A stretch of 56,674 nt of DNA from a virus. Taxonomy: Duplodnaviria; Caudoviricetes. Location: the IMG/VR virus record IMGVR_UViG_3300020686_000001, positions 1-56,674 of that record, one strand, 5' to 3'. A model generated the notes under the pieces. That model ran no database searches. It saw only the letters and a program-made list of their open reading frames with translations, and was not told the origin of the DNA. The translations under genes were made by a program, and so were the position numbers. Below, in pieces: positions 1 through 56,674 of this stretch. Each line of letters opens with the position of its first letter. Position 1 is the first letter of the stretch.

Positions 1-99
1 TGGCTTCCCATTCCTATAATGAACACCACCAATATTGACAGTTCCCAAAGATTCAATTTTGTCGGCTTCTTGTGCCTTTCTTAGTATTGCTCTAGCAAA
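1..99. repeat. Terminal direct repeat (copy 1); circular assembly overlap
   Basis: 1-99 is identical to 56576-56674. Confidence 0.95.
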
Positions 100-276
100 T
101 AAAACCAATCTTTCAGGATTTTCACTATGGTAGCTATGGCAAAAATACTTAGCTTCAGATTTTATTTCCTCATCTGTTAGTGTCTTTAACTGTGGTGAGC
201 AAGTATGAATAGAATCGCCTGTAACTCTTTGCCCACAGTCTAAACACGCAGTCCACGCTACTGGTTCATTGTTCAT
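1..276 (-). CDS. Small cassette-array protein spanning the circular junction (ends at TGA 56567-56569)
   Basis: Hand translation from ATG 276: MNNEPVAWTACLDCGQ...LKTLTDEEI...FARAILRKAQEADK...GKPEK*; ATGA overlaps with both neighbours. Confidence 0.8.
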   Translation of the reverse strand, partial: MNNEPVAWTACLDCGQRVTGDSIHTCSPQLKTLTDEEIKSEAKYFCHSYHSENPERLVLFARAILRKAQEADKIESLGTVNIGGVHYRNGKP

Positions 277-1684: not shown

Positions 1685-2037
1685 TGGGTTAACCTCATTT
1701 CATTTCTAGCGGATGCTTCTAGGGAGCGCCACGCCTCAAGCTTGGCTTCTGCTGCTGCAATTAACAAGCGCAAGGTCTCATATTCTGAGATTGCCTCACC
1801 TGTGTCGTAAACATGCTTTTCAAGGTGCGGATGGGCGTAGGCAAAGGTTTCCTTGGCAGCTTCAGATTTAGCATCTATAGCCTGCATCATAAGCTTTGCT
1901 TTGACTGTTTTACGCATCTCGGTCATGACATATACACGACCCTTAAGTGCTCCTGCCTTTTCAGCATTGTCTCTAAGGAAGTCCATAGCCTCGTATGGAT
2001 TGATGTTTTCAGGGGTTGTTGCTGGGTATTTCTTCAT
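1681..2037 (-). CDS. Conserved phage helical protein
   Basis: 118-aa coiled-coil ORF ending WRSLEASAR; lies in the recombination operon. Confidence 0.7.
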   Translation of the reverse strand: MKKYPATTPENINPYEAMDFLRDNAEKAGALKGRVYVMTEMRKTVKAKLMMQAIDAKSEAAKETFAYAHPHLEKHVYDTGEAISEYETLRLLIAAAEAKLEAWRSLEASARNEMRLTQ

Positions 2038-2386
2038 TCAAATCACCTTTATCTGTAATTTTTACTACCAACATGCCTTTAATTCCTACGCCCCAACGAA
2101 TACTGAGGTCATGGATCAATGAATCATCTTTCCAAGCCCCTGCATGGGTTAGGGCATCCAAAGGCGCTTTCAGTAGATTGTCCAAATCACGCAAGCGTTT
2201 ATCGGGTCTGTAAGCAATTATTTCCACTTTGATAGGTCTATCCCTCATTACCACCATTTTTTCAGCTACAAGCCCTGCTACAGCCTTCCTATAGTCCTTT
2301 CCCTTCTGACTAATGAATGTAACAGTGCGAGTGTGAACCCAGTAATGGTTTACCGATGGTGGAAAGGGGATAGTGATTTCTATCAT
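2009..2386 (-). CDS. rusA: RusA-like Holliday junction resolvase
   Basis: PFPPSVNHYW and PDKRLRDLDNLLKAPLDAL..AG..KDDS motifs. Confidence 0.92.
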   Translation of the reverse strand: MIEITIPFPPSVNHYWVHTRTVTFISQKGKDYRKAVAGLVAEKMVVMRDRPIKVEIIAYRPDKRLRDLDNLLKAPLDALTHAGAWKDDSLIHDLSIRWGVGIKGMLVVKITDKGDLNEEIPSNNP

Positions 2387-28333: not shown

Positions 28334-28342
28334 GATTGATCC

Positions 28343-30406: not shown

Positions 30407-30415
30407 TATTAACCT

Positions 30416-31693
30416 TTAAGCTTGAGTTGTTACTGCAACAACATCCCAAAATGTGTCTTGAGCATTATATACACAGCCAACATAGGTAACTTTACCAGCT
30501 ACAGTTGTTGTTGGTAGGGTTGAACCAATAATTCTATATCCACCTGAAGTTGTTGTCCAAGCTAATGTTTGGGCTGTTCCATTGTCTTTAATGCGAATTG
30601 TTAGCTTTTGACCATCAGCACCTACAGAAGGAATTGCAAATGTTGTACCTACTGCTAATGCTGTCACATTGTATTGAGCAGTTGTAATGGTAGGAGTAAT
30701 CGTAGATGCAGATGCAATAGTTCCCGGTGTCTGTGTATTAGATATTGTGATAGAACCTGAAGCATTGGTTACTGTTATTCCAACACCTGAAGTCAATGTT
30801 GATAATGTGTAATTTGTACCATTACCAATTAGCAATTGACCATTAGTTGGGGTTGTTGTAATACCTGTACCTCCATTGGTAATAGTCAAAGTACCAGCCA
30901 AAGTTACAACACCTGTAGAAGATGTATTAGGAGTAAATCCTGTAGTTCCTGCGCTAAATGATGTTACTCCAGCAATTATTGCAGTGCTGATAGTTTGCCA
31001 AGAACTATTGATATATCCCTCTATAACATTGGTATCAGAGTTATATCGCATCATGCCATTAGCAGGACTTGAAGGGCGACTTGCAGTGCCTCCTGTAGGA
31101 ATGGTAATGCTTCCACCACCGGGGATTACAGGGTTATTTACAATTCCAATTACAGGGGATGAAGAGCCATTAGTTACTGCAATTTGATTTGCTGTTCCTG
31201 TAATGGTTATTGCAGATAAAGAACTACCACCAGCAACAGCCAATAAACCTGTGCCTGAAAGTGTGGATAAAATGGAATTTAAACCTGTCAAAGCAATGGT
31301 AGGGTTTCCGCTTACTCCATTACCATTGGTAACGGATATACCTGATCCTGAACTTTGAATAGTAATTGGAGCTACTGTATTACCTGATGTCTTAGCAATA
31401 ATTCCTGTAGAAGCGTTTTCTAGGCTTGCAGAGGTTGCATTTAAGGCAAATACAAAGTTGCCTTGAGCGCCACCATCAGTTACACCAATACCTAATCCAC
31501 CTGTAATCTTTCGGCTATTCGGAAGGCTTGTTTCAGTATTAATTGTGGCAAATGTCTGTGTCTGGACAGGGCTATTAACTAACTTAGTAACAGTTGTTTG
31601 AACAGTTTGACCATTTTGGACAATAGGAACAAGCTCTGAACCTGTAATAGCGGTTGGAGCTGTTGGGAGTTGCGATATTCTGATATTTGCCAT
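30416..31693 (-). CDS. Tail fibre-like protein
   Basis: MANIRISQLP start; RP.SP.NGMMRYN; GQLLIGNG; DGQKLTIRIKDNG. Confidence 0.75.
   Translation of the reverse strand: MANIRISQLPTAPTAITGSELVPIVQNGQTVQTTVTKLVNSPVQTQTFATINTETSLPNSRKITGGLGIGVTDGGAQGNFVFALNATSASLENASTGIIAKTSGNTVAPITIQSSGSGISVTNGNGVSGNPTIALTGLNSILSTLSGTGLLAVAGGSSLSAITITGTANQIAVTNGSSSPVIGIVNNPVIPGGGSITIPTGGTASRPSSPANGMMRYNSDTNVIEGYINSSWQTISTAIIAGVTSFSAGTTGFTPNTSSTGVVTLAGTLTITNGGTGITTTPTNGQLLIGNGTNYTLSTLTSGVGITVTNASGSITISNTQTPGTIASASTITPTITTAQYNVTALAVGTTFAIPSVGADGQKLTIRIKDNGTAQTLAWTTTSGGYRIIGSTLPTTTVAGKVTYVGCVYNAQDTFWDVVAVTTQA
30929..30967. repeat. 39-bp repeat shared with 28115-28153
   Basis: One mismatch. Confidence 0.85.
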
Positions 31694-32502
31694 TATGGTG
31701 TTCCTGTTGCAATTAAAATACCTTCTACACCAATACCTACTTGTGATGTTCCAGAAGATGGTCCTCCAGTAGCTTGCCACTGAATATCAGTTTTTGCAGC
31801 ATATGCACGAGGGGCTACTCGAAGTGTTTGATAGCTATTGGTAAAAGGCGCTTGTAAAAGAATTTGAATCAACCCAGCAGATGATTGTGTCCAAACTCTA
31901 TATCCGCAAAAATTGTTAATTGTGTTTCCGCTTTGATTGGAATATGCATTAGATCGAGTCAAATAGAATGTATAACCATTCGGAACTGTATAAATCATTG
32001 CTTGGCTTTTACCATTTCCTGCTGTAATTTCAGCATATTGAATGGTTTTTCCTGCATTTCCTAGGTTCAAAATACCTACTGCATTGACAGTGCCAACTAC
32101 TTGTATCCCATTGATTCTTAAGTAACTATTGACAGTAGTAACGCCTGTCGTTCCATTGGTAAGGGTCAATGTTTCAGAAAGCAAGTTGTAGCTAGAATCT
32201 AATCCATTAATTAATACTTGAACTGCTGTATCAGAAGCTGAAGAACTCCACAACAACATGGTTGTAGCAGATGCAGGATAAGTATAAGCGGTAGTATTTT
32301 CCCAAACAGGATAGTAAGTTACAGCACTAGAGTTTGGCAATGCACTCTGATAACCATAAATATTAACTACTGAAGCGCCTGTAACAAGCCCACGAGATAC
32401 TTGTAAGTAAGGAGGTAAAGCAAGCGGAGATTCATTATCAGTAATCGCAGTAATTGGATTACTAGAAGATGAACCTTGAGGTGGAAAATAATTGATTGTC
32501 AT
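31693..32502 (-). CDS. Virion structural protein
   Basis: LQVSRG.V.G, SSSASDT..V.INGLD, IYTVPNG.TFYL. Confidence 0.65.
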   Translation of the reverse strand: MTINYFPPQGSSSSNPITAITDNESPLALPPYLQVSRGLVTGASVVNIYGYQSALPNSSAVTYYPVWENTTAYTYPASATTMLLWSSSASDTAVQVLINGLDSSYNLLSETLTLTNGTTGVTTVNSYLRINGIQVVGTVNAVGILNLGNAGKTIQYAEITAGNGKSQAMIYTVPNGYTFYLTRSNAYSNQSGNTINNFCGYRVWTQSSAGLIQILLQAPFTNSYQTLRVAPRAYAAKTDIQWQATGGPSSGTSQVGIGVEGILIATGTP

Positions 32503-37538: not shown

Positions 37539-37569
37539 AAAAGGTGGGGGATTTCTCCCCCTGCCTTTT
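37539..37569 (-). terminator. Intrinsic terminator-like hairpin
   Basis: GGGGGA-TTTC-TCCCCC flanked by AAAAGG/CCTTTT. Confidence 0.65.
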
Positions 37570-38683
37570 AATAATTACATTTACCGCCTTTTTTCATATG
37601 ATGCTTAGCGTGACCGCCTTTTTTCATAGGATGAGCTTCAATCTTCTCATGACCATGATGATGCTTAGCTACATGCTCATGCATATGGGTAAAACCATGA
37701 TCCCCATGTCCATGAGTCGTGTGATGAGACACATGACCGCCATGAGCATGATGCTTAACATGACCACCTTTTTTGTAACCAGCAGGCTCTTGCTTAATGC
37801 CTTTAATGCCTTTTGGTCGCTGTTTAGGGCTATGAACACCATCGTTCATATCGCTTACAAAACGCTTAGCAACATTGTCAGAAACAGTGCCACCTTTAGC
37901 ATACTTATGAGCATGACCGCCACGCTTGTAACCAACACCTTCAAGGCTACCAGATTTAGTGCTGAAACCTTTAACTTGCTTAGCTCCAACTACTTTATCT
38001 TTCACATTGATTTTTGGTTTCAAAGTCGTTTTTGTTTCAAAAGAATCAATCGCAGCTCCACCATCTTTTAAATGTTTAGCATGCGCTTTGTGGTGCTCGT
38101 GCATCTTTTTGTGATGCGCTGAACCACCTTCTTTATGTTTAGCAGCATGGTGTTTAGCCATATGCTTGTGATGCTCATGCGAACCTTCAGGATGACCAGA
38201 AATATGGTGAACCTTGTGTGCATGACCGCCTTTTTTGTAGCCAGCCAATTCAATATCACCAGTTGTTTTTTTGCGGTCAGGGCGAGTTGCACTGATACCA
38301 CCTAAAAGACCACCGGGAGTATTGTCTTTAGCCATAGCAGCTCTGCCACCACGCTTTAAACCATGATGAGCTTTACCAGCTTTTTCATGCTCATGATGCT
38401 TGAGTTCTTTTTCAAGCATATGAATCTGATGCTCTTCATGACGCTCTTCTTTAGCACTTTCAGCCTTGCCACCACGCTTACGCAAGATTGCAGGAACACC
38501 TGTTGGAGCTACACGCCCACGCATGGCACGACCCATAGGAGCAGCCATAGCCATTGGGTTTCCACCCATAGCCATATGCTTCTTATGAGCGTGACCACCA
38601 CGCTTCATGCCATCGCCTACTTCATCTGCTGATGGTTCGGTTGTGTATTCTTTTGGCTCACGCAAAAACTTTTTAGTTGCCAT
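37568..38683 (-). CDS. His/Lys-rich protein with 13 xxxGG motifs
   Basis: Extreme H/K content; repeated GYK[K/R]GGH.H/K. Confidence 0.75.
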   Translation of the reverse strand: MATKKFLREPKEYTTEPSADEVGDGMKRGGHAHKKHMAMGGNPMAMAAPMGRAMRGRVAPTGVPAILRKRGGKAESAKEERHEEHQIHMLEKELKHHEHEKAGKAHHGLKRGGRAAMAKDNTPGGLLGGISATRPDRKKTTGDIELAGYKKGGHAHKVHHISGHPEGSHEHHKHMAKHHAAKHKEGGSAHHKKMHEHHKAHAKHLKDGGAAIDSFETKTTLKPKINVKDKVVGAKQVKGFSTKSGSLEGVGYKRGGHAHKYAKGGTVSDNVAKRFVSDMNDGVHSPKQRPKGIKGIKQEPAGYKKGGHVKHHAHGGHVSHHTTHGHGDHGFTHMHEHVAKHHHGHEKIEAHPMKKGGHAKHHMKKGGKCNY

Positions 38684-44256: not shown

Positions 44257-46855
44257 TTGGTTCTCCTTGTGGTGGTTGTGCCTGTTGAGCTTGAGCTTGT
44301 TGCAAGATGCCTTGCTGTTGAGCTTGAGCTGATTGTTGTTGCATTTGTTGTAAATGCTCCATATTGCTTTGTTGCATAGCTTGCTCTTGCTGTGCTTGGG
44401 CTTGCTTGGCTTCGAATTGTTTCTCAATCGTCATGGTGTTGATGTCATGAGTTAATTTAGCGCCCTCAATCTGTTGCTGGCTCACTATTTGAGCTTCTTT
44501 ATCCTGAGAGTCTTGCTGTTGCTTCTGAGCTTTTAGGTTTAAATCAGCCTTGTCGTAAGCAGCCTTACGCTGAGTCTCAGCCATAGCTGTTTGCTGTAAA
44601 GCTTGAACTTGAGCTTGAACATTTGGATCAAGCGGTTGAGTTGACTTCATCTTTTGCATCATTTCAGTCATTTGCTGAATTACAGGCATAACTTGTTTCA
44701 TGATTTCTTGAGAATCCACATGAACATGTTGTCCTGCAATAGCCAAAAGCTTTTGAGCTTCAGGAATAGTCTTCTTAACTGCCATAACATCATATGGTTT
44801 GCCAAGATGTTGGGTTGCATACTTGCCAACGCTTTCAAGATAGAACAAGCTTAGGTGTTGCTTAATGTGTTCTAAGGCGTTAGGGATAAATGCAGGAGCA
44901 ATAATTGGATTAGCGCCATAAAGTGGATCTTTAGCAAACTCTGTATGGCTTAACAGGTGAGATAAATGGTCTTGACCGGGGAACGCACCTACAGGCTTTG
45001 CTAATGTCAATGAAATGTTCTCCAAAGCAGGGTTCATATCTTTAACATCATCTTTATCAGGCAGAACATCGTTGATGTCAGGCAATTTAATCTGTTTTAA
45101 GATGCGTTTTTCAACTGCAAGGCGGTCATAAAGGTCAGGATTTGCTTGAGCACGAGCTGCTAATGTCTGAATTTGAGCATAACGCTGTGATTCAGCAAAG
45201 ATATGAGGGTCAGATACAGGAACAATGTCTGCATTTGTCTCAAAGTCTTCTTTAGTAATCTTGAGGTCGGCAACAACTTCGCCCCTCATCTGCTCTTCAA
45301 GATACCAACGATTTAATCGAGCCAAAATCTTAAATACACGCTTCTGAGAATCATGCAAACGAGCGTGAATCGAACTAAATACAGCAGCACCTTGCTCAAT
45401 AAGGGCTTGTGTTGTGCCAACAGGCGCTTGAGAGTTGACATCTGCAATCTTTTCCTCTGAAGTTGTGACTACACCTTTGGCTGCCTCTGTTAACCAGCCT
45501 AATAATTGGAATAAAACAGGGCTTGGTGGGTTAAATGGCACAGGCATAGCGATTTTACGAACATCATCTACTCCCGGTGCGCCTTCAATCTCGCTTACTT
45601 GGGTGACATCGATAACAGTTGACTGACCTGAAATCTTAGCGCCCTTAAGCTTGAGCATAGTAGGTGCGTTATTGATGTGAGCGCTGTCCATAAGTGCTCG
45701 TAAAGCGCCAGTAAGAGCAGCGCTAAGACCGCCAATAAGGTGAGGCAAGCCAATAGCGTAAGCACCACGCCAAGGAATAAACTTGAATTCAATAAGCCAG
45801 TCGAGTTTCGTAAAGGTTTCATCGCCATCTTCCCAGTTTCTATACAAGCCAACAGGCTCACTCTCATTTTCATCAATCATAAGAATGTATGGCGCTCTTT
45901 CACCCTTGGAAAACTTGTCGTCTTCCAGCTCTAGCCATGTATAAATGTGGAAAACACGACGAATGCCATCAATATTGGATGACTCACTGCGCTTACCTTC
46001 AATCTTATTGTTAGCTTTTTCAGCTTTTGTCTCATCAGGCTCTTCAGGAATGCGATAAACATCGGTATCACGATACAAACCGCTTGCAACACGCAGGTCA
46101 TACTCTTCCTGAGTAATGTCTTGAACCTCTGTAACACGCATTGCAGTGTAGAAATTACCTGCTGCAAAGGGTAAATAAATATTATCGATAGGAACGAACT
46201 CAGCGCATGGGCGCTTTTTCTGCTCGTCGTACCACATCTTGAAGTATTGTGAGCCACCTAAAGGCAATTGGGTGAACATTTGCTCCTGCTCATCTCGATA
46301 TTCTTCGATTTGCTCAGTCAACTGCCAATTCATGTAATCACGCTTGCGGTCAGCCTTCTCACGCTTCTCTTCGGTTACATCTCCGATGATTTTGCTTCGT
46401 ACTGGTCCGTCAGGTGGAAATAGTTCCTTGATTGCTCTAGCAGCAAAATCAACGCAGGACTCTGCCATAACTGGGTGGACAACTTTGCTTGCACCCATGA
46501 ACTGTGCGCCTCCGGGTGCGTCATCGCCAAGCCCTGTGCGTCTAATGCCTTCTTCATACTTTTTATCTCTATCTTCCCTAGCTTCCTTGTCCTTTTCAAT
46601 CAGGTCAAGGTATTTCATTGTTATTTTGTTTAAATCATAAGAATCAATAGTGTCAGCCAAGTTTTCATAGAAATCAGGCGACTCTTCAGGTCCTTTTAAG
46701 TCTTCCAAATGCACGATAGCTGAGCCATCAGGCATCTCTTCAACATCTGTACCTTCTACATCATCAAAGTATTCAACCAAAGATTCATCATCATCACCTT
46801 CAATAGGATCAATGTGTCGGTTGTAGTCTTGTGGGATGGGCATTTCTATAGCCAT
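44249..46855 (-). CDS. Portal protein
   Basis: GAS.VVHP.MAE.CVDF.AR, LPL.GS.YFK, APVGTT.AL.EQG...SSIHARLH; Q-rich C-terminal barrel. Confidence 0.88.
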   Translation of the reverse strand: MAIEMPIPQDYNRHIDPIEGDDDESLVEYFDDVEGTDVEEMPDGSAIVHLEDLKGPEESPDFYENLADTIDSYDLNKITMKYLDLIEKDKEAREDRDKKYEEGIRRTGLGDDAPGGAQFMGASKVVHPVMAESCVDFAARAIKELFPPDGPVRSKIIGDVTEEKREKADRKRDYMNWQLTEQIEEYRDEQEQMFTQLPLGGSQYFKMWYDEQKKRPCAEFVPIDNIYLPFAAGNFYTAMRVTEVQDITQEEYDLRVASGLYRDTDVYRIPEEPDETKAEKANNKIEGKRSESSNIDGIRRVFHIYTWLELEDDKFSKGERAPYILMIDENESEPVGLYRNWEDGDETFTKLDWLIEFKFIPWRGAYAIGLPHLIGGLSAALTGALRALMDSAHINNAPTMLKLKGAKISGQSTVIDVTQVSEIEGAPGVDDVRKIAMPVPFNPPSPVLFQLLGWLTEAAKGVVTTSEEKIADVNSQAPVGTTQALIEQGAAVFSSIHARLHDSQKRVFKILARLNRWYLEEQMRGEVVADLKITKEDFETNADIVPVSDPHIFAESQRYAQIQTLAARAQANPDLYDRLAVEKRILKQIKLPDINDVLPDKDDVKDMNPALENISLTLAKPVGAFPGQDHLSHLLSHTEFAKDPLYGANPIIAPAFIPNALEHIKQHLSLFYLESVGKYATQHLGKPYDVMAVKKTIPEAQKLLAIAGQHVHVDSQEIMKQVMPVIQQMTEMMQKMKSTQPLDPNVQAQVQALQQTAMAETQRKAAYDKADLNLKAQKQQQDSQDKEAQIVSQQQIEGAKLTHDINTMTIEKQFEAKQAQAQQEQAMQQSNMEHLQQMQQQSAQAQQQGILQQAQAQQAQPPQGEPNA

Positions 46856-49800
46856 TATTTCTTCCTTGTTAATGCTAAGCGCATTTCATCGATACTAACA
46901 TTGCCACCTTTTTTACGATTGAGTGGGCTATCAGGGTTAAATGGGTTCATTATTCCCGGTGTAAATCCTGCACCACCTCCTGATGGGCGTGAAGTTGGAA
47001 CAGGTTTATCGCTTCCCTTGTAAGGGTCATACTTATTGCGGTTGACTATCTCTTCTTGACCTTGACGAATGCGCTCAGCGTTATCAATCTTGAACTGTTC
47101 GTATGGAGTTAATTTTGGTTGACCGCCTTCATTCATGCGTCTTTTGCGAATAGCTCCACCACGCTTATGTCCTCGTGGATCTTCACCCATTCCTGCTTCA
47201 GGTGGGCGATAGTTAGGGAATCGTAAAGCATTCCAATTTCTGATAATGTTAAACGCTTCTTCTTTTTGAGGCTCAGTAAAGTCTGAAAATGCATTACGAC
47301 CTCTAACTCCATTTATTACTGCCACTAATGCTTCACCATCAGTAGCAGGATTGTATGTTTGACTTGTTAAAGAATGAATAATTCTACGATGAGCTAACTC
47401 AGGTAGCGTGTTATTGCCAATTAAAACTTCACCAATTCGTACATCTCTTGGGTCTCCAAACTGTCTAAATGCACCTCTATCACCTTCTAAATAGTTAACT
47501 GTTGCCAATCTTACAAGTGATTGGTCCACAGCATTTAAAGGTCCTTGTTGTACATTTTGATTAGAAGTTGGTGCAATACCTTCATTGCGAATTCTAGTTA
47601 AAACAGCTTCTACCGCTTGAGGAGAGCTTCCTGCTAATCCATATCGGTCTAAGTCATCTCCAATTACTGTAGTCAAATTAGACCTAGTTAATGGATTATT
47701 TTGAATGTCTTCAAGCATATATCCATGTCGCTGACGAATCTCACCGCTAACTGCTTCATAAGCTCTTTGTCTAATAGCTTCAACTTGCTGACGATTCTCA
47801 GGTAGATTATCTATACGATTTTCAATGTGTTGACGGATATAAGACAGAACACGATTGGCATCGTCTTCAGTAGCAAGATTGTTAGTAACAATCGTTGGAA
47901 GATTATCATAATCTTGATAACGCTCTAAAGACCTATTTAAGCCCTCTTCATTATCAGGAAGACTTCTAATTACAGAATTGATACCTTCAGTCAATGATTG
48001 AACTTGTGCTTGTCTTTGAGTTAAACTTTGATGCGCTCCAACAGGACTAACTTCCATAGCCACATCTCTAGGAGTGGGCATAGCTTCTGTAGGAGTAGGC
48101 AATGCAGGAGCATTCTGTCCATTTACATGGTTTGCATTGGCTTCAGTAATAGCATCTCTTACCTGCCTTAAACTGTTGCGAACCTCTACAGGAAGATTGT
48201 TGTCATTTGATGCAATGCCTATTTGTTGAGCAAAACGCAATGGTCTTTCATTTACAGCAATATTAGGGTTATCCCTAGAAAATTGCGCTATGGCATCAGC
48301 AACAACAGTTCCAACCTGTTGTCTTGTATCTGCTCCATAGTTTTGTTCTACTCGGTCAATCGTGCCATGCAATGCATCAGAAAATGCTTGTATTGGTAAA
48401 CCAATTTGATTGGTTGCTTGGGCAGGCTGAGCAGGCGCAGGATGGCGTATCATCTGACGCAATGCTCTTTCATGAATCTGCAAAAGATGTCTGTATTCTT
48501 CAACATCTGCTCTATCCATGCGTGGATGGTCATCCATAATGGTTTGAGGAACAGCATGATTTCTTCTATCGCTAAGACGAGTAATCAAGTGTTGTGGGTC
48601 ATTAAATATTTCACTATTCAAATTACCCAAGTCTTCCTGATAGGCTTGCCAAGATGCAGTATGGGTTTGATGAGATGCCAATGGAGTACGAGTACCATTT
48701 CTTTGTAATACATCAGCATAATGAGCCAATTGACCAATTGCATCAGCATGACGCTGAACAGCATTTGCAAGTTCATCAGCTTCGGAACGAGAAGCTAAAC
48801 CATAGTCTCCAATATGACCATTATTTATTTGCTCAACAATATCGCTTAAATTGCGATGTAACTGATAATCACTTATTGGGTTATTGTGGTTTCCCAATTG
48901 CTCTTGATTATTCAATATGCTTCTGTAAGCACTGTAAGGTCTTGGATCTAAAGAACCAATCGAATATGCCAATGGATTAAACCTACTACCATCCTCAACA
49001 ATCTCTCCAGCATCTAACTGACGCTGTGGAGTAAGGTTCATAGAACTTAAGTTCTGCATCACAATATTGCGCTCTGTAGCTTCACGCCCAGATGGTGGGG
49101 ATGAACGAACTGCTGGAACTGGAGGATTATCCTGTTTGTATTGTGCTACAGCTTGTTTACCTTGATCTAGGGTAATGAATCGGTCACCATCAAGAGTATC
49201 AGTAATGTATTTGCGGATTTCAGGATATTTACCACGCTCTACATTCAGGTCATTTAACATGGTATGCAAAGAATTGCCTTCACTAGCATCATAAACACCA
49301 TGCTTGTGAATGTTTGATGTGAAATCAACTTTGTCTTTAATACTGTTCAGGAAGTCAGCAAGCTCAGGAGCATATTCTTTGTTGCCCCCGTTTTGGTATC
49401 CACTGACATAACCCATTTGATAGCCACCATCGCTAGTTCTATCTAATTCAACAGTTATCTGTGGTAATCCTGTTTTTGCATCACGAATGTCTGCAATATC
49501 CAAATCACCATCTGCGACACGCTCAACATATGAGCTATCTTCGCCAGCATTCTTGGTAGGTCGCTTTGTTACAGGATCATTCATTGCAATGTATTGACGC
49601 TCTTTACCTGTAAACAGATTCTTTGTTCCTGCTCCACGACCACCTTGACCGATACAATGGTCAAGAACAAAAGTAATATCAGACAGATTTTGTTTAATCT
49701 GTTCAGGCGTCATATTTTCATCGGTAATCCAAAGAACTTTCCCTTTTTCTCCTACAGGCTCAGTTGGAAAATCGTTAAGAACATTTTTAAAATAATTGTC

Positions 49801-51864
49801 TACATCTGTTCTATAAGTAAGCTGGGCTTTACGCTCTTTGGCTTCTGTTTCTAATCGTGGCTTGACCTTCTTCTCTAGCCATTTTCTCCATGCTTGAGGG
49901 CTTGAGAAGTCTTTGACTTTATCTACAGGAATTACGCCATGCATGATGTCATTAACTAAATCATTAACCATTTTTTCTAAACCAATATATCTGGTTTGTT
50001 CAGGTCGAATATCTACCAATTTCGCTTGATTTGGTACTGTATATTCCCCTGTATCTATCGGTACATTAGAAAAAGGAATCAATTCTTTCTTGGTTGCCAT
50101 TAACTCAGGATGGAATTGATATTCGGCTGGGTCAAGGTTATATCTGACTCGCTCAGCATTCAGGTTAGGTCGAACTACTAAGTCATTGATGTTTTCATAG
50201 GCTGAGCCAACCTTAAGCTTGCGTAGTTGCTCTTCAGCTTCGTTAAGCATTTTTTGCTTAGCTTTGATCTGATTAGAGAATTTAGCGTACTCAGGATTGA
50301 CCACTTGGCGAACTTGCCCTGTTTCAGGATCAATTGCTCCTGTAGGATCAGGCATACCCATCCCTTGAGTTCTCACAACTTCAGATGATTGATTCTGCAA
50401 TTCTTGAATGTCATCGTTAAGCTTTTGTATCTTGCTTTCAACTGGTGGGATTTCTTTGTTAGCAACTTCACCCATTGGTTCAAAGCCAGCTTCTCTTCTA
50501 GTCTCTTGAACATCCCTCATAGGGTTTTCAAAACGCTCAAACTCGGATGCAGGCTTATAGGTAATACCTTCTTTAGCAGATGCCACGAATGGATCTTGTG
50601 GCGTACCCATGTACTTTTGCATCAAGTTTGGCAAATGCTTTTGAGTTATCTGTTTGACCGCTTCATTTCTTTCAATGAACTCATTCATTGTAGGAATATC
50701 GAAACCATCTTGTTTTGCTTTTTTAGCAAACTCTTCCAACCATTCGAGCATGATGTTGCCACGATTTTTTGCATCATATCCTATGCTAAATGCTCTAGCC
50801 GTATCACTACGATTCATATTAGGATAAAGCTCATCACGCTTTTTGGCTTGAAATACTCTCCATTCATCACGCAAAGCAGTGCTTTGAGGGGTATTTCTAT
50901 CAAAAACAGTTTCCTCAAATGCATTGACTACATGAAGAGGGTCTTCATTTTTGATTGGCTCAGCTTGTCTAAGCATGACATCTAAATTGCCATAATTCGT
51001 ATTATCGTTTCTGCCACCTGTAGGTGTTTCACGATTACGGATAAACATGCCTTCATTGGTGTTTCTGACAGCAAATGTTCTTGGATCAAACACTTCCACA
51101 GTACCCTTTGGAACACCGGGAATTGGACTCTCGCCCCTTGCTGTGCGCCTTGCCATGACATCGCCAACATCTTCAGCCACACCTTGGAGCTTAGCGCCAT
51201 AAGTAGGCTGACCTTTGTAATTCTGACGAACCACGCCTGATTGTGCGTTTTGAAAGTCTTGGGGGATATTCTTAATTTCACGCCCTGTTTCAATAGCTTG
51301 CTTACCAAGAACCCTAATATCATCAGGATTTATGCCACGCCCAAGATTTGCCAATTCAGGTAATGGTGGAGTCATTGAAGACCCAAGCAATGCTTCAGGG
51401 GCTTGACCGATAGCTTGAGAAATATCCTGCCCTGCTTTAGTTGGTGGCGTGTATTGCGTTGCCTGCATAGCTTGACCAGCTTGCTGTTGAGCATAATCTG
51501 TATTTTGCCCATACTGACCATTCAAGATTGATTTGCCTACACCATATAGGTTTGATCCTGCGATTTGAGGTGTTGCAAGAATGTATGGTGCTAAAGCTTG
51601 AGCCAATGATGAGCCGGGCATATGCTCAATAGCAAACTTACCTAACGCATTAAAGTTTCCAAGAGTTGATGGAGTTGTAGTTTGTGTTGGCTCTGCTTGA
51701 GGTACTTGCCTTTTAACAGGCTGTGGAGGTATGGCGTTTACAGGATAAGGAACATCTGATCCATTTGGCTGAAGGGGCATATTGCCTTTGTTAGCCAACT
51801 CGTAACGCATTTGGTCGAGCGTAGGCAAAGGTGTGCTGTTATCATCCCATTCGTTAATTGCCAT
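46855..51864 (-). CDS. Large polyvalent-type protein with central PcfJ-like motif
   Basis: 1669 aa; LDHCIG...IRD...G.P.ITVE; C-terminal xxxGG motifs. Confidence 0.6.
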   Translation of the reverse strand: MAINEWDDNSTPLPTLDQMRYELANKGNMPLQPNGSDVPYPVNAIPPQPVKRQVPQAEPTQTTTPSTLGNFNALGKFAIEHMPGSSLAQALAPYILATPQIAGSNLYGVGKSILNGQYGQNTDYAQQQAGQAMQATQYTPPTKAGQDISQAIGQAPEALLGSSMTPPLPELANLGRGINPDDIRVLGKQAIETGREIKNIPQDFQNAQSGVVRQNYKGQPTYGAKLQGVAEDVGDVMARRTARGESPIPGVPKGTVEVFDPRTFAVRNTNEGMFIRNRETPTGGRNDNTNYGNLDVMLRQAEPIKNEDPLHVVNAFEETVFDRNTPQSTALRDEWRVFQAKKRDELYPNMNRSDTARAFSIGYDAKNRGNIMLEWLEEFAKKAKQDGFDIPTMNEFIERNEAVKQITQKHLPNLMQKYMGTPQDPFVASAKEGITYKPASEFERFENPMRDVQETRREAGFEPMGEVANKEIPPVESKIQKLNDDIQELQNQSSEVVRTQGMGMPDPTGAIDPETGQVRQVVNPEYAKFSNQIKAKQKMLNEAEEQLRKLKVGSAYENINDLVVRPNLNAERVRYNLDPAEYQFHPELMATKKELIPFSNVPIDTGEYTVPNQAKLVDIRPEQTRYIGLEKMVNDLVNDIMHGVIPVDKVKDFSSPQAWRKWLEKKVKPRLETEAKERKAQLTYRTDVDNYFKNVLNDFPTEPVGEKGKVLWITDENMTPEQIKQNLSDITFVLDHCIGQGGRGAGTKNLFTGKERQYIAMNDPVTKRPTKNAGEDSSYVERVADGDLDIADIRDAKTGLPQITVELDRTSDGGYQMGYVSGYQNGGNKEYAPELADFLNSIKDKVDFTSNIHKHGVYDASEGNSLHTMLNDLNVERGKYPEIRKYITDTLDGDRFITLDQGKQAVAQYKQDNPPVPAVRSSPPSGREATERNIVMQNLSSMNLTPQRQLDAGEIVEDGSRFNPLAYSIGSLDPRPYSAYRSILNNQEQLGNHNNPISDYQLHRNLSDIVEQINNGHIGDYGLASRSEADELANAVQRHADAIGQLAHYADVLQRNGTRTPLASHQTHTASWQAYQEDLGNLNSEIFNDPQHLITRLSDRRNHAVPQTIMDDHPRMDRADVEEYRHLLQIHERALRQMIRHPAPAQPAQATNQIGLPIQAFSDALHGTIDRVEQNYGADTRQQVGTVVADAIAQFSRDNPNIAVNERPLRFAQQIGIASNDNNLPVEVRNSLRQVRDAITEANANHVNGQNAPALPTPTEAMPTPRDVAMEVSPVGAHQSLTQRQAQVQSLTEGINSVIRSLPDNEEGLNRSLERYQDYDNLPTIVTNNLATEDDANRVLSYIRQHIENRIDNLPENRQQVEAIRQRAYEAVSGEIRQRHGYMLEDIQNNPLTRSNLTTVIGDDLDRYGLAGSSPQAVEAVLTRIRNEGIAPTSNQNVQQGPLNAVDQSLVRLATVNYLEGDRGAFRQFGDPRDVRIGEVLIGNNTLPELAHRRIIHSLTSQTYNPATDGEALVAVINGVRGRNAFSDFTEPQKEEAFNIIRNWNALRFPNYRPPEAGMGEDPRGHKRGGAIRKRRMNEGGQPKLTPYEQFKIDNAERIRQGQEEIVNRNKYDPYKGSDKPVPTSRPSGGGAGFTPGIMNPFNPDSPLNRKKGGNVSIDEMRLALTRKK

Positions 51865-53314: not shown

Positions 53315-53546
53315 GAGTGGAGTTGATTAGGTCTAATGTGTGTTTTAGGCGTATGTTGATGTTATCAAGGACAGTTTCAGCATTTTGAATGAAGTTCTCA
53401 GCTTCCTGCTTTTCCTTGTATTCGACTTCAGCCATAGCGCAGTTGTAGCCTGCCTCATATGCATTATCGATATCTTCATCAGTGTATTTACTGAGCCAGC
53501 TTCTTTTCAACTGTTTTGATAAGGTCTTCAAATACAGTATTAACAT
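53292..53546 (-). CDS. Hypothetical protein between TerS and TerL
   Basis: ORF overlapping both genes; start uncertain. Confidence 0.45.
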   Translation of the reverse strand: MLILYLKTLSKQLKRSWLSKYTDEDIDNAYEAGYNCAMAEVEYKEKQEAENFIQNAETVLDNINIRLKHTLDLINSTHDSAGHC

Positions 53547-53931
53547 GGTCTATCTCCATTTGTATCTTGTCGCCATCCTTACCTGATAACTCTACTTTAG
53601 AGCGCTCAGAATACTTTTTAGGAAACCTAGCAGCCATACTGCGAGACCACATAGACGCATTGATTGAATCGCCCTGATGGGTGTTTATTAGGTATTCTTG
53701 AGCCTTATCTTCCCACCAAGCCTGTTCTGCAGCTTGTGCATCCTCCAAGGCATGACAAAATTCTATATGTTCATCACGCCATCTACAAAGTGTGCGGTAG
53801 CTAACATCTAGCTTAGCAGCCATTTGCTCGAATGATTTCCCTATCTTTCCTAGCTTGATAACCTCTTCACAGTATGAAGGATCATAGGATGTGGGTCTTC
53901 CAACAGGATTTTTTTGCTTCTTTTCGCTCAT
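53488..53931 (-). CDS. terS: Terminase small subunit
   Basis: GRPTSYDP.YC, HTH, TL..WR.EH.EF, VELSGKDG; upstream of TerL. Confidence 0.8.
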   Translation of the reverse strand: MSEKKQKNPVGRPTSYDPSYCEEVIKLGKIGKSFEQMAAKLDVSYRTLCRWRDEHIEFCHALEDAQAAEQAWWEDKAQEYLINTHQGDSINASMWSRSMAARFPKKYSERSKVELSGKDGDKIQMEIDHVNTVFEDLIKTVEKKLAQ

Positions 53932-54404
53932 GGCAATTGAATCTCCATCCACCATTTAGGAACTATGCTTGGATTTGATTTTGCAACAGCCAATAATCTA
54001 GATCCAACATATCTTTCAAGTCGCTTGTTATTGGCTTTTTTTGCATCGGAGTACATTTTCCCCAACTTACGCTTAATAACCTGAATCCTTTTTTGGTTTT
54101 TGCCCGAAAGACCACCAAGACCACCATCTGACATATTTGTTAGATTTGCTCCTAGATTTCTGTATTCTTCAATGTAATAACATTCGGCTTTTTGCCAATC
54201 GTTAATAGAAATTACTTCTATAACCTCTAATATTGGTTTTTTACCTTTTAAAATTAAAGACTTAATCCAACAAGTCTTGATGCTTCGAGATTTTAAATTA
54301 GACAAATGTTGCTTGTAGCGTATGTTTGGTTTATCAGACTTACCAACATACCTAGGCTCTTTGGTATCAGGGTCAAGCAGTATGTAAATACTTGTGGTTT
54401 CCAT
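53928..54404 (-). CDS. GIY-YIG family endonuclease (free-standing, homing-like)
   Basis: IYILLDP...RYVGKS...RYKQH...E..YI...LTN..DGG. Confidence 0.8.
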   Translation of the reverse strand: METTSIYILLDPDTKEPRYVGKSDKPNIRYKQHLSNLKSRSIKTCWIKSLILKGKKPILEVIEVISINDWQKAECYYIEEYRNLGANLTNMSDGGLGGLSGKNQKRIQVIKRKLGKMYSDAKKANNKRLERYVGSRLLAVAKSNPSIVPKWWMEIQLP

Positions 54405-54458
54405 AACTTTCTTTCAAAGCTGTATATTTTTGAAGTATAAGGGAAAACTAGGAGAGTG

Positions 54459-54665
54459 TCACTTCTCTTGCACTTTTCTTACTTGTGGGAAGTGTTTAGC
54501 CAAAAGCTCATCTTCTGTCTGATTGTTTATAGGGTAATCTTTTTTAAGTCCTGAGCACATTGAACAAGTTGCAGCAGGCTCATCTAGAAAGAAATTGCAC
54601 CAAATATGATGCTCACCCAAAAAAGCTTTTCTAGCCTTGACCCATTCATTCCAATTGTCGTTCAT
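54459..54665 (-). CDS. Hypothetical cassette protein
   Basis: HHIWCN..C..C; ends in the junction motif (RKVQEK). Confidence 0.65.
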   Translation of the reverse strand: MNDNWNEWVKARKAFLGEHHIWCNFFLDEPAATCSMCSGLKKDYPINNQTEDELLAKHFPQVRKVQEK

Positions 54666-54674
54666 TTATTTTCC

Positions 54675-54938
54675 CTAATAGCTCATAACAGGAGCTAGTG
54701 GCAATGGGGCAAGCATTGGCAATTGCGGTAATTGTGGTACAGGCGGTAAAGAAGGCACTATGGGCGTTGGAGATGTAACCTGAGCATATCCTATAGGCTG
54801 ACCATATTGATTGCTGTAGACAGTGGTTTGACCCTGTGTCTGAGCTGTTACGACAGGTTGACCATACTGATTGGAATAAACCACTGTTTGGGATTGGCAG
54901 ATGCCAATAGATGCTAGTAAAACGATAAAGTATTTCAT
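54675..54938 (-). CDS. Putative exported protein with internal repeat
   Basis: Signal-like MKYFIVLLAS; VYSNQYGQP twice; Pro-rich tail. Confidence 0.6.
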   Translation of the reverse strand: MKYFIVLLASIGICQSQTVVYSNQYGQPVVTAQTQGQTTVYSNQYGQPIGYAQVTSPTPIVPSLPPVPQLPQLPMLAPLPLAPVMSY

Positions 54939-55087
54939 GAATTCCACCATTTTTGCGCTTTTAGGCGCTTAAATTTTAAAAAATGAACCCTAACCTTGAA
55001 AACATTCAAGCGGTTGAAAGATTCAATGGATTTGGCGTGGGATCGCCTTTGGGTAGCCATCCTAGTTCTGGAGCGTCTAGGAATCAT
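54935..55087 (-). CDS. Small basic protein
   Basis: Start MIPRRSR within the junction motif. Confidence 0.5.
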   Translation of the reverse strand: MIPRRSRTRMATQRRSHAKSIESFNRLNVFKVRVHFLKFKRLKAQKWWNS

Positions 55088-55103
55088 TTCTCTTGTGCCT
55101 TTC

Positions 55104-55319
55104 TTAAATTTCATCGGGGTCAAACCCCTTAGATTTCAACCAGTTATCAAGCAATTCATGTGCTTCTTCCTCTAGTTCAACTGGCACTCTGCGTTCTACA
55201 TAGGTAGTGTCGGGGTTTTGAAATTCAGGCTTAACTGGAAATGTGACATTCATATCTGCTATATCAAACTTAACAGATTGCCCTTCACCTTTTGGTATTG
55301 CTTTTCCAAAATCACTCAT
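55104..55319 (-). CDS. Hypothetical cassette protein
   Basis: 71 aa, bounded by junction motifs. Confidence 0.65.
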   Translation of the reverse strand: MSDFGKAIPKGEGQSVKFDIADMNVTFPVKPEFQNPDTTYVERRVPVELEEEAHELLDNWLKSKGFDPDEI

Positions 55320-55504
55320 TTCTCTTGTGCCTTTTCAACTTTTGCTTTTGGTACACATATTCCGTTATATCTTAGGTTAGCACCGCCACGATAAGCGTCT
55401 ACTTGTGCTTTAGCTTCCATGCAAGTTTCTTTATTAAAAAACTCAGCCGTAGCTAATGCTCCATCGTTAGAGCCTAAAAGAATTAAAATCCATATCTGTA
55501 TCAT
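55316..55504 (-). CDS. Hypothetical cassette protein
   Basis: WILIL...F...ETC..A...CVP; ends KAQEK. Confidence 0.65.
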   Translation of the reverse strand: MIQIWILILLGSNDGALATAEFFNKETCMEAKAQVDAYRGGANLRYNGICVPKAKVEKAQEK

Positions 55505-55608
55505 TTCTCTTGTGCCTTTCTTAGTATTGCCATTGAATACAACAATCCAGCCAAAAATCCCGCCACAACAAAAAATGTAATATGCAATCCAATTAGTAGA
55601 TATATCAT
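55501..55608 (-). CDS. 35-aa membrane peptide cassette
   Basis: MIYLLIGLHITFFVVAGFLAGLLYSMAILRKAQEK. Confidence 0.6.
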   Translation of the reverse strand: MIYLLIGLHITFFVVAGFLAGLLYSMAILRKAQEK

Positions 55609-56105
55609 TTCTCTTGCGCCCTTCTTAGTATTGCTCTAGCTATTTCAATAAACCAATTATCTGCATCGTTATCATCAAACTCTTTCCAAAGTTGCAATAT
55701 TTCCTCATCTGTTAGTGTCTTTGCTGGATGGGTGTAGAGTGGAATATCGTAATCAGTTTGAATAAAACCTACCATTTTTGGTTTTCCTGTATTTTTATCT
55801 ATCCACGCTATTGGTTTAGGACTTGGTAAATCAATTTCAATAGTTTCTAACTTATCTGGGTCTATTTCATAACTTGGTTCAGGGGTGTTGGTAATAGGGT
55901 GTGCCATTGAATTTAAAGATATTCCATCTTGTTGCTCTAGCTTGGTTGCTATCAAATATCGCAAGTCGGTATTTTCTTTCTCCAACTCTTCAATTTGCTC
56001 TTGTTGCTGGCGGAGCATGGCTTCAGCATTAGCTCCCCATTCACGCAAAGATAAAAAGTCATCTTTCCATTCTTGGTATTCATCAGCTAGTTCATTTGCG
56101 TTCAT
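55605..56105 (-). CDS. Modular cassette protein
   Basis: MNANELAD...MLRQQ...PIAW...IPLYTHPAKTLTDEEI...IARAILRRAQEK. Confidence 0.75.
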   Translation of the reverse strand: MNANELADEYQEWKDDFLSLREWGANAEAMLRQQQEQIEELEKENTDLRYLIATKLEQQDGISLNSMAHPITNTPEPSYEIDPDKLETIEIDLPSPKPIAWIDKNTGKPKMVGFIQTDYDIPLYTHPAKTLTDEEILQLWKEFDDNDADNWFIEIARAILRRAQEK

Positions 56106-56121
56106 TTCTCTTCTGCCTTTC

Positions 56122-56286
56122 TTAATTTGTTGTATACACGGCTTCTTTGCCAATAAAACTAGGCATTTCGCTTTTAATCGCCATTTCAACCATATCGTCT
56201 GCAATCTCTAAAGCAATACCGTAACCTTCTGTTGTCATGGTAATTTTGTCAGCATCATCAACCTCAATAACAATTGTGGCTTTCAT
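56122..56286 (-). CDS. Hypothetical cassette protein
   Basis: Start MKATIVIEV inside the junction motif. Confidence 0.6.
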   Translation of the reverse strand: MKATIVIEVDDADKITMTTEGYGIALEIADDMVEMAIKSEMPSFIGKEAVYTTN

Positions 56287-56570
56287 TTCTTTTGTGCTTT
56301 TTTTAATGCTTCTTTCCAGCGAATTAACTGTTCTTTTTTCCACTCATCACGCAACTCAAGGTCAAACCTCAACACACCTTCGTCAGTTTCGCAATAAAAG
56401 TCAAACGCTTTATTCCATTCCTCATCTGTTAGGTTTCTCGGAGAGCTGTAAAGCAAAGTACCTTCTTTTAATTCGGTAAATCTTTCTATTGGAAAATTGT
56501 TTATTCCGCTTATAGTTATTTTTTTAACTATCGCTACTGGTTCATATGCTTTCCATGCTATTGTTTTCAT
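56283..56570 (-). CDS. Modular cassette protein
   Basis: EPVA...LLYSSPRNLTDEE...ALKKAQKK. Confidence 0.7.
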   Translation of the reverse strand: MKTIAWKAYEPVAIVKKITISGINNFPIERFTELKEGTLLYSSPRNLTDEEWNKAFDFYCETDEGVLRFDLELRDEWKKEQLIRWKEALKKAQKK

Positions 56571-56575
56571 TTCTC

Positions 56576-56674
56576 TGGCTTCCCATTCCTATAATGAACA
56601 CCACCAATATTGACAGTTCCCAAAGATTCAATTTTGTCGGCTTCTTGTGCCTTTCTTAGTATTGCTCTAGCAAA
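56576..56674. repeat. Terminal direct repeat (copy 2)
   Basis: Identical to 1-99. Confidence 0.95.

Follow-up and report, generated by a model that had tools for sequence, protein, structure and literature searches.

The gene array and its recurring joint

The window discussed here, meaning the whole stretch of DNA that was analysed, is the complete IMG/VR virus record IMGVR_UViG_3300020686_000001 (Duplodnaviria; Caudoviricetes), 56,674 nt in length with a GC content of 40%. Its minus strand carries an array of ten small genes, here called g1 to g10, which are chained together by recurring copies of a 23-nt sequence, TAAGAAAGGCACAAGAGAAATGA, referred to below as the joint. The array crosses the ends of the record, starting near position 276, resuming at 56674 and stopping at 54459. 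The record has a 99-nt terminal repeat in which bases 1-99 equal bases 56576-56674. A search allowing up to 3 mismatches returned 6 copies of the 23-mer, against a mean of 0.00 in 100 dinucleotide-preserving shuffles, none of which reached 6. With one further copy at 4 mismatches and one split copy, the minus-strand total is 8, made up otherwise of 2 exact copies and 4 with 1-3 mismatches. An earlier reading of this DNA from its letters and open reading frames (ORFs), the sequence-only reading, had given about nine, a fair count.

The array opens with g1, a member of the protein family described below with a zinc-ribbon-like N-terminal segment, whose first 92 codons lie at 1..276 (minus strand, as do all features of the array). 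Its 5' block, ATGAACAATGAACCAGTAGCGTGG, occupies 253-276 and its central block 163-187, and the gene continues over the record ends to 56567. The 3' end of g1 (56567..56674) consists of FARAI plus the first 16 nt of the joint, together spanning 56643-56674, and then a 69-nt insert. This is the split copy, with its first 16 nt at 56643-56658, its last 7 nt (GAAATGA) at 56567-56573 and the insert in frame between them; g1 accordingly reads ...ARAILRKAQE, then 23 extra residues, then K and the stop. The ATGA at 56567 is both the stop of g1 and the start of g2 (56283..56570; 95 aa), a divergent family member with a central-block remnant at 56418-56432 and the tail LKKAQKK, which ends in joint J1 (56283-56305; 3 mismatches, in frame). 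The 54-aa g3 (56122..56286) is not a family member and stops at the TAA of J2 (56102-56124; 1 mismatch, out of frame). An orthologue of g3 at another locus, L097, is 93% identical and shows the same arrangement at the joint.

Directly after J2 lies a second recurrent 5' block, MNANELAD (56079-56101), which opens g4 (55605..56105; 166 aa). This gene encodes a coiled-coil N-terminal module followed by the family domain, with PIAW at 55803-55814 and the central block, CCACTCTACACCCATCCAGCAAAGACACTAACAGATGAGGAAATA, at 55698-55742; its tail, IARAILRRAQEK and a stop, ends in J3 (55605-55627; 2 mismatches, in frame). The following g5 (55501..55608; 35 aa) is a hydrophobic mini-gene that carries the family tail only (AILRKAQEK and stop). 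It ends in the exact, in-frame J4 (55501-55523), where identity with other copies reaches 7 nt further upstream (GCAATAC). Next come g6 (55316..55504; 62 aa), with an N-terminal hydrophobic stretch, the tail VEKAQEK and the in-frame J5 (55316-55338; 3 mismatches, all in the first 4 nt), and the non-family g7 (55104..55319; 71 aa), which stops at the TAA of J6 (55084-55106; exact, out of frame). Contigs about 97% identical to g7 exist in other freshwater runs. The 50-aa ORF that starts at the ATG of J6, g8 (54935..55087), is of doubtful coding status because its frame is very basic and no homologue was found in 129 loci searched. Its stop overlaps the start of g9 (54675..54941; 88 aa, with a signal-peptide-like N-terminus and a Q/P-rich body) as ATGA but without the motif. 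The last gene, g10 (54459..54665; 68 aa), ends in the degenerate J7 (54459-54481; 4 mismatches), where the tail RKVQEK runs into GTGA without a coupled ORF and the array ends. Within the window, the family members are g1, g2 and g4.

The sequence-only reading described the arrangement at these copies well. ATGA is both stop and start at J1, J3, J4 and J5 (56283, 55605, 55501 and 55316) as well as at the end of the split copy, and five upstream ORFs read the motif as an (L)RKAQEK-type tail. At J2 and J6 the upstream ORF ends at the TAA of the motif, the other 20 nt are non-coding up to the next ATG, and that ATG opens the next ORF. The joint holds stops in two frames, TAA closing one and TGA the second, with ATG in the third, an arrangement by which any gene joined in this way would end properly and the next would stay coupled. 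The pattern holds beyond the window. Of 201 copies from many loci, 161 are read in frame to the TGA. Among 182 complete cases, 176 have an ORF of 30 codons or more starting at the ATG, as compared with 0/201 and 12/201 for the other two frames. The overlap of upstream stop and downstream start is found both in the window and in these loci.

Read from its sequence, the 23-mer is rich in purines (19/23) and has no self-complementarity. A consensus scan of 53800-56674 gave 7 promoter-like sites where 8.2 were expected and 4 terminator-like sites where 2.3 were expected. As none of either kind lies on a motif copy, a promoter or terminator role of the motif was rejected. A known RNA family was likewise discarded as a candidate, Rfam having returned only two sub-threshold chance matches over the array. 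The best promoter-like site of the region (54434-54462, minus strand; GTGACA, a 17-nt spacer and TATACT, 10/12 matches) sits directly after the degenerate last joint copy and upstream of a GIY-YIG gene.

A mosaic protein family

When the proteins up- and downstream of the 201 motif copies were clustered, one large family of 157 members (107 upstream, 50 downstream) stood beside 122 other clusters, most of them singletons. Its consensus runs MNNEPVAW, about 24 variable residues, IPLYTHPAKTLTDEEI, about 20 variable residues and FARAILRKAQEK. Members of about 70-100 aa are thus laid out as a 5' block, a variable segment, a central block, a second variable segment and a 3' block. The joint is the last part of the 3' block of about 39 nt, which spells FARAILRKAQEK, the stop and the ATG of the next gene. 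The variable segments are discrete, mutually unalignable cassettes and not point-mutated copies. This is not the pattern of a diversity-generating retroelement, both because the segments cannot be aligned and because no reverse transcriptase was found among the window proteins scanned. The MNANELAD start of g4, together with a coiled coil containing MLRQQQAEIEALK, also recurs behind joints elsewhere (L015, L051, L091, L094, L097 and L106) and behaves as another conserved 5' block, with a spike of contig depth in bin 56060-56139 (see below).

With one typical 80-aa member as query, at least 3,537 clusters at the 90% identity level match at E ≤ 0.001, from 5,019 candidates of 44-140 aa in length; none of the 120 clusters listed has a Pfam domain or an informative name. 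What emerges is an unnamed and very large family, made up of small accessory proteins from freshwater phages. An hmmscan of 36 members against Pfam, with E values up to 1 admitted, yielded scattered weak matches only, Pfam and PHROGs returned zero matches for the ten array proteins, and a sequence profile search of the PDB with the family found nothing below E 0.05. One candidate relative, PF26207 (Phage_phiTE_015), was set aside, as its protein-atlas score is only 0.75 and it is absent among the 25/27 matching families listed in the hmmscan of the 36 members. The AlphaFold model of g4 (mean pLDDT 79.8) begins with a long helix at the N-terminus, after which come three strands and two helices, and the last of these helices is predicted to be the conserved tail. 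A BFVD fold search with this model retrieved only uncharacterised proteins of uncultured phages (best E 1.7e-3). Among the papers listed by a literature search on the peptide blocks, none contains LTDEEI, PLYTHP or RKAQEK. At five loci (L026, L071 and three more) the gene that begins at the ATG of the joint is larger, with 214-216 aa where complete. We take its product to be a candidate for a YqaJ/lambda-Exo-type recombination exonuclease.

Spread of the joint among viral contigs

The search of viral contigs that the sequence-only reading had proposed turned up the motif widely. Exact copies of the 22-mer are present in at least 129 IMG/VR stretches, with carriers whose large terminase subunits (TerL) are largely unrelated, and in 11 contigs of genome collections, all of them contigs of metagenome-assembled genomes (MAGs) from bins of mixed phyla. 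No cultured phage was found to carry it, the only match there being a Manatee Spring metagenomic record with 30 nt exact. Of 15 carrier records of 34-67 kb, 3 have a match to the window TerL (30-38% identity over about 205 residues) and 12 have none; among carriers that are at least 90% complete, the figure is 3 of 10. Conversely, the motif lies within the fetched flank in 6 of the 80 best loci of the small terminase subunit (TerS), where TerS is 53-66% identical to that of the window. This mismatch between the motif and both terminase subunits indicates that the motif travels with the accessory module and not with a phage lineage. Five carriers searched whole have 1-3 copies each, which places the eight copies of the window at the rich end.

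Motif-bearing phage contigs are scattered over MAG bins of many phyla. Polynucleobacter and other betaproteobacteria, to which 4 of the 11 bins point, are weakly suggested as hosts. One 138.7-kb MAG contig (L353, G016:C5:118667-138666) has archaeal-type genes (PcrB, TruD, NFACT, S-layer) and a GC content of 56%. About 3 kb at its end hold 6 joint copies, and the GC content of the last 20 kb drops to 49%. The array there is probably a chimeric contig end or a mis-join, and not host evidence.

Conservation of the blocks as DNA

An IMG/VR search with a degenerate pattern that admits all synonymous spellings of x-RKAQEK followed by TAA or TGA gave a sample of 166 distinct sites. The same 23 nt are found at 141 of these, 24 differ by 1-3 bases (22 of them by 1-2) and 1 is unrelated. 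Under the codon usage of 20 long window genes, the spelling used for RKAQEK has a probability of 0.6% and that used for FARAILRKAQEK one of 3e-6; rare codons in the joint block include CTA, which makes up 8% of the codons for Leu, and ATA, 16% of those for Ile. A set of 169 exact copies is made up of 150 that read RKAQEK and stop, 18 that lie behind the TAA of unrelated genes and 1 in the third frame. The genes ahead of the 18 out-of-frame copies are often small and hydrophobic, and they show no conservation upstream of their TAA. Conservation at the nucleotide level, as the sequence-only reading had it, is borne out both by the uniform spelling and by the out-of-frame copies.

It could be argued that the motif is nothing but the conserved C-terminal helix of tandem paralogues, with selection on amino acids only. 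Most exact copies do read as a protein tail, the largest cluster around the joints is a single protein family, and the AlphaFold model puts the tail in the terminal helix. The 73 variant copies also show a codon-3 periodicity, their changes clustering in the first four bases and at positions 11, 14, 17 and 20, which are third codon positions. Yet selection on the protein would not account for the near absence of synonymous diversity despite rare codons, for the 18-21 copies that are out of frame, or for unrelated proteins that carry only the last 6-9 residues. Nor would it account for a stop that is always TGA overlapping ATG, as in 196 of 196 tails with at least 4/6 matching residues. The out-of-frame copies and the codon data largely refute this explanation, and we regard it as highly improbable.

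The DNA identity is not confined to the joint. In the flanks of 162 distinct exact copies, about 17-22 nt on the upstream side are conserved as well (consensus TTTGCTAGAGCAATACT, FARAIL), and conservation is at background level immediately after ATGA. The identical DNA spelling is used for EPVAW in 39/41 cases, LTDEEI in 43/60, PLYTHPAKTLT in 17/25, FARAIL in 52/54 and RKAQEK in 84/86. An internal 25-nt block, AAAGACACTAACAGATGAGGAAATA, which contains no gene boundary, has exact matches in at least 123 IMG/VR stretches. Between phages that share no other detectable similarity, the DNA of the blocks is nearly the same letter for letter. In 19 pairs with a common C-terminal variable segment, divergence is 6.8% of bases in that segment and 2.4% in the blocks, so the blocks are more conserved than neighbouring homologous DNA, although the pool as a whole also looks young or well mixed. 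The idea of a free-standing universal joint has to be given up, since the motif is mostly the 3' end of one mosaic family and one of at least three DNA-identical blocks.

A second alternative is that the identity of the joint is kept mainly because it is a translation-initiation cassette (AAAGG, its spacing and the ATGA overlap), with shuffling as a side effect. AAAGG sits where a weak Shine-Dalgarno site with good spacing would be expected, and it is the least variable stretch of the variant copies, its third positions included (3 and 5 changes, versus 8-17 at other third positions). The ATG opens a real ORF in nearly all complete cases, out-of-frame copies keep all 22 nt though they are non-coding, and the motif also precedes larger non-family genes (five loci for one cluster). 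Against this, 22 invariant bases exceed what a ribosome site needs, the identity goes on upstream for 17 nt (FARAIL) in about 65-75% of copies, and inspection of the sequence shows that other genes of the window phage use stronger GGAG-type sites. Above all, the internal blocks, which have neither start nor stop, are just as DNA-identical and widespread, so that a role in ribosome binding is not needed to explain the conservation. Overlapping coding, ribosome-site and stop/start constraints would slow divergence of the joint but would leave the identity of the internal blocks unexplained. A ribosome-binding and coupling role of the joint is plausible, though it would not be the main explanation, and the cassette as the chief cause of the identity seems unlikely to us.

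Breakpoints and reassortment at the blocks

The sequence-only reading had further suggested that gene content breaks at the motif, and here it is supported. In an all-against-all blastn of the loci (alignments of at least 60 nt), 1,737 of 5,552 alignment right ends fall on the last base of the motif, and 2,694 lie within +21 to +24. Left ends fall within or just before the motif in 639 of 5,600 cases. Comparison of distinct copies in 11,935 pairs shows a tract of perfect identity through the motif whose median length is 26 nt. This tract measures at least 23 nt in 93% of pairs, 27 nt in 43%, 31 nt in 30% and 60 nt in 0.2%, and it extends about 0 nt past ATGA. Individual pairs of loci illustrate this. 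L029 and L082 are alike in a family gene and the gene next to it (89-96% DNA identity) and have different genes from the joint onward, a cassette swap. In L083 and L086 the N-terminus and the downstream gene are common, and the differing segment ends at the first base of the motif.

Reassortment is also seen within genes. A variable segment is common to 29 of 1,953 protein pairs (at least 60% identity), of which 8 share the N-terminal segment only, 19 the C-terminal segment only and 2 both. As 27 of the 29 have only one segment in common, the two halves reassort across the central block. At about position 1732 of L066 (motif orientation), a 5' block (start codon and NNEPVA) is fused to the last 19 nt of a 3' block. 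By its sequence, the resulting 7-codon mini-ORF looks like the deletion remnant of a whole gene body.

The array region is present in 24 freshwater runs from 20 studies, among the matches listed, and 9 of these hold at least half of the sampled words. Four freshwater runs were compared with the window as assembled contigs. Summed contig depth is about 4-40 on unique parts and hundreds to thousands on blocks, a ratio of 10 to more than 1,000 versus nearby bins. In run X7, for example, it reaches 3,456 in bin 55500-55579, 4,802 in 55660-55739, 1,297 in 56060-56139 and 6,767 in 56620-56674. Contigs leave the window at 55084, 55316, 55698, 55745, 56078, 56124 and 56643 into many unlike sequences, and agreement with the consensus beyond block edges is 0.5-0.9 in most. 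One 249-nt contig is 97% identical to g7 and has different letters beyond J6. Joints between motif copies in run contigs (15 shown) have sides of 20-32 nt and are indistinguishable from cross-matches of the repeat.

Such data raise the question of whether the shuffling is an artefact of short-read assemblers that join or break contigs at exact repeats. Logan contigs do break at block edges, the archaeal-looking 138-kb MAG contig ends in an array, and in 21 of 80 listed loci a copy lies less than 300 nt from a contig end, which fits assembly graphs that branch at the blocks. The final k-mers of most assemblers are longer than 23-40 nt, however, and most identity tracts lie within that range. 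The window was assembled through 8 copies, and one run contains a 9,978-nt contig that matches 54300-55529 without difference. The motif, its frames and its foreign neighbours moreover fit within the length of a single read and are not products of joins. Assembly errors could inflate the apparent number of long-range rearrangements, but there is very little chance that they account for the shuffling itself. A practical consequence is that the blocks fragment metagenome assemblies and may cause mis-binning.

A proposed mechanism of exchange

Given the anatomy of the genes, the identity of the blocks in DNA, their spread over unrelated phages and the breakpoints at the blocks, the blocks probably act as short homologous crossover points at which whole genes and half-genes are swapped between otherwise unrelated phages. 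In substance this agrees with the recombination joint of the sequence-only reading. General or phage homologous recombination would pair two genomes at a conserved block. A crossover in the central block would reassort half-gene cassettes, and one in the 3' block would replace, add or remove whole genes. Exchange of this kind would leave the joint behind unrelated genes, sometimes out of frame, and the 3' block would keep gene ends intact together with the presumably coupled start of the next gene. Minimal efficient pairing is given as 31-34 bp for RecA and 23-27 bp for Red-beta in the account by De Paepe et al. (PMC3945230), which also describes Rad52-like phage recombinases as drivers of mosaic formation over short homology. 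The tracts found here, typically 23-40 nt, fall within this range and are long enough for homologous pairing.

The absence of a dedicated integrase, which the sequence-only reading had assumed, holds for the 72 window proteins scanned (some small ORFs lay outside the scan), among which there is no integrase or recombinase family. Its comparison with integron shuffling fares less well, as there is neither an attC-type hairpin nor a site-specific recombinase and the pattern fits homologous recombination. Could a dedicated site-specific system, whether integron-like or a homing nuclease of the GIY-YIG or HNH type, still recognise the motif and move the cassettes? The copies are unusually exact, and an HNH/DUF968-like gene (1240-1533) lies on one side of the array and a GIY-YIG gene (53928..54404, minus strand) on the other. 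Relatives of these two genes, however, occur in only 1 locus each of the 129 searched, and a sequence with 19 of 23 purines can form no attC-like hairpin. That three different blocks behave alike is a better fit to homology-driven exchange than to one recognition site. We therefore consider such a system improbable, although slightly less so than selection on the protein tail or an assembly artefact.

Several observations weigh against crossover at the blocks as a full account. All of the evidence comes from comparing assembled contigs, with no recombination event observed directly, and exact repeats can break or mis-join metagenome assemblies, for which the copies close to contig ends are a warning of chimeras. 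Indels between closely related loci are few, with only 3 events among the loci, and no annealing-type recombinase was identified among the window proteins scanned. The codon-3 periodicity of the variants implies that amino-acid selection acts on the joint too, and the constancy of AAAGG possibly reflects a ribosome-site constraint, on small numbers. The low divergence of shared segments (6.8%) means that part of the identity could come from a young, fast-spreading gene pool. Finally, recombination alone leaves the identity of blocks across lineages unexplained, so that one has to assume either some selection or exchange at a very high rate. The blocks could have been kept identical by frequent exchange, by selection for recombinability or by recent spread.

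A bolder version of crossover at the blocks may be entertained, tentatively and with clearly less confidence. Here the blocks would be the crossover sites of a population-wide combinatorial shuffling, in which cassettes for small early phage proteins, half-genes as well as whole genes and numbering in the thousands, are continually reassorted among unrelated freshwater phages. The blocks would stay letter-identical at about the minimal pairing length, rare codons included, because lineages with mutated blocks leave the exchange. Such a process would be a form of 'DNA shuffling' in nature that acts on a hypervariable family, with an arms race against host defences as a plausible driver. In any case, the analysis flags an uncharacterised family of at least 3,537 clusters, on which diversifying pressure probably acts, and it is relevant to how ORFan accessory genes come to be captured and stay expressed.

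Genomic setting of the array

The window is a complete lambdoid-like phage genome. On the minus strand, its gene order starts with a Cro/CI-like regulator, an O-like replication initiator, a DnaB-like helicase, the Holliday-junction resolvase RusA (2009..2386) and the HNH/DUF968-like gene. It continues with the array, the GIY-YIG endonuclease-like gene just downstream of it, TerS (53488..53955) and TerL, and the portal and structural genes. These assignments come from protein-family scans. Between the RusA/HNH genes and TerS, the array occupies the position of the nin region of lambda, RusA lying upstream of it in a nin-like layout. The best matches of the window TerL are an uncultured record (61%) and Caulobacter phages (42%). 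RusA and a weak PD-(D/E)XK nuclease-like match are the only recombination-type matches among the window proteins scanned, and no tRNA genes were found in it.

Other features of the genome lie apart from the array. Neither Pfam nor PHROGs has a match for a 1,669-aa ORF (46855-51864, minus strand) that separates the large terminase from the portal gene. Many direct repeats of 30-118 nt with 60-90% identity occur at 27400-32200 and 15200-16260, where they fall inside large structural or tail-fibre-like genes. A 371-aa gene at 37568-38683 contains a repeated unit that, on the plus strand, ends in GACCGCC(T/A)...TTTTTT; this points to a structural protein with repeat domains.

Comparison with known systems

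The closest concept is that of the short conserved boundary or 'linker' sequences of phage mosaics. A model of modular phage evolution reportedly goes back to Botstein and Susskind, and boundary sequences are said to occur at mosaic joints of phage HK620. For decades there has been debate over whether mosaic joints are produced by homologous exchange at boundary sequences or instead by illegitimate recombination and subsequent selection. The modular model is discussed by Pope et al. (2011; PMC3029335), whose account includes a single case, from a mycobacteriophage, of neighbouring genes with about 50 bp in common that code for the same 18 C-terminal residues. The present blocks resemble boundary sequences in that a short sequence at gene boundaries is common to otherwise unrelated genomes, homology breakpoints fall on it, and exchange needs only general or phage homologous recombination. 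Recurrence in dissimilar genomes, homology that ends at the sequence and a tract long enough to pair are all found here. They differ in that the sequence is exact in at least 129 viral contigs and is itself coding, forming the tail of a gene family. It is also one of several blocks, and sub-gene segments are shuffled too. With a 22-40-nt sequence that is exact in more than 100 viral contigs, carried by phages with unrelated packaging genes, the joint offers an abundant natural case and a concrete system in which exchange at boundary sequences can be measured.

Comeau and colleagues are said to have treated promoter-early stem-loop (PeSL) cassettes of T4-type phages in 2014. Such cassettes are also the subject of Arbiol et al. 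(2010; PMC2839356), where they appear as repeated motifs between small non-essential ORFan genes in hyperplastic regions, and recombination between copies is described as leading to gene insertion, deletion and replacement. In both respects they are like the joint. According to the same account, however, PeSLs are intergenic promoter-plus-terminator units for which mini-circles have been demonstrated. The present motif has no promoter or terminator match, is mostly coding with a stop/start overlap, and is seen here in assembled contigs.

The gp38 adhesins of T-even phages parallel the internal structure of the family. As described by Trojet et al. (2011; PMC3157838), conserved glycine-rich motifs separate hypervariable segments within one protein, and exchanges within or near the motifs give chimeric proteins. 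The alternation of motif and hypervariable segment is thus the same, but the sequences are unrelated. Instead of tail-fibre adhesins, the present family consists of small early or accessory proteins from tandem arrays, and its terminal block also joins whole genes.

Two further systems share the general layout of the array. The nin region of lambda and similar operons have ATGA stop/start overlaps with translational coupling. The array has the same position between replication/RusA and packaging genes and likewise consists of small genes chained by ATGA, but the overlaps of lambda are not known to lie inside a 22-40-nt sequence that is common to the genes and to unrelated phages. Integrons consist of an IntI integrase, an attI site and attC sites. 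Like the present array, they are arrays of small, mostly unknown, promoterless genes, each closed by a recurring sequence, and gene content varies between relatives at the repeat. In contrast, the 72 scanned window proteins include no IntI-type tyrosine recombinase, neither an attI site nor an attC hairpin is seen and the array has no Rfam match, while the repeat itself is coding and purine-rich. What sets the present case apart is that it combines sub-gene and whole-gene shuffling in one family, within coding sequence and on a very large scale.

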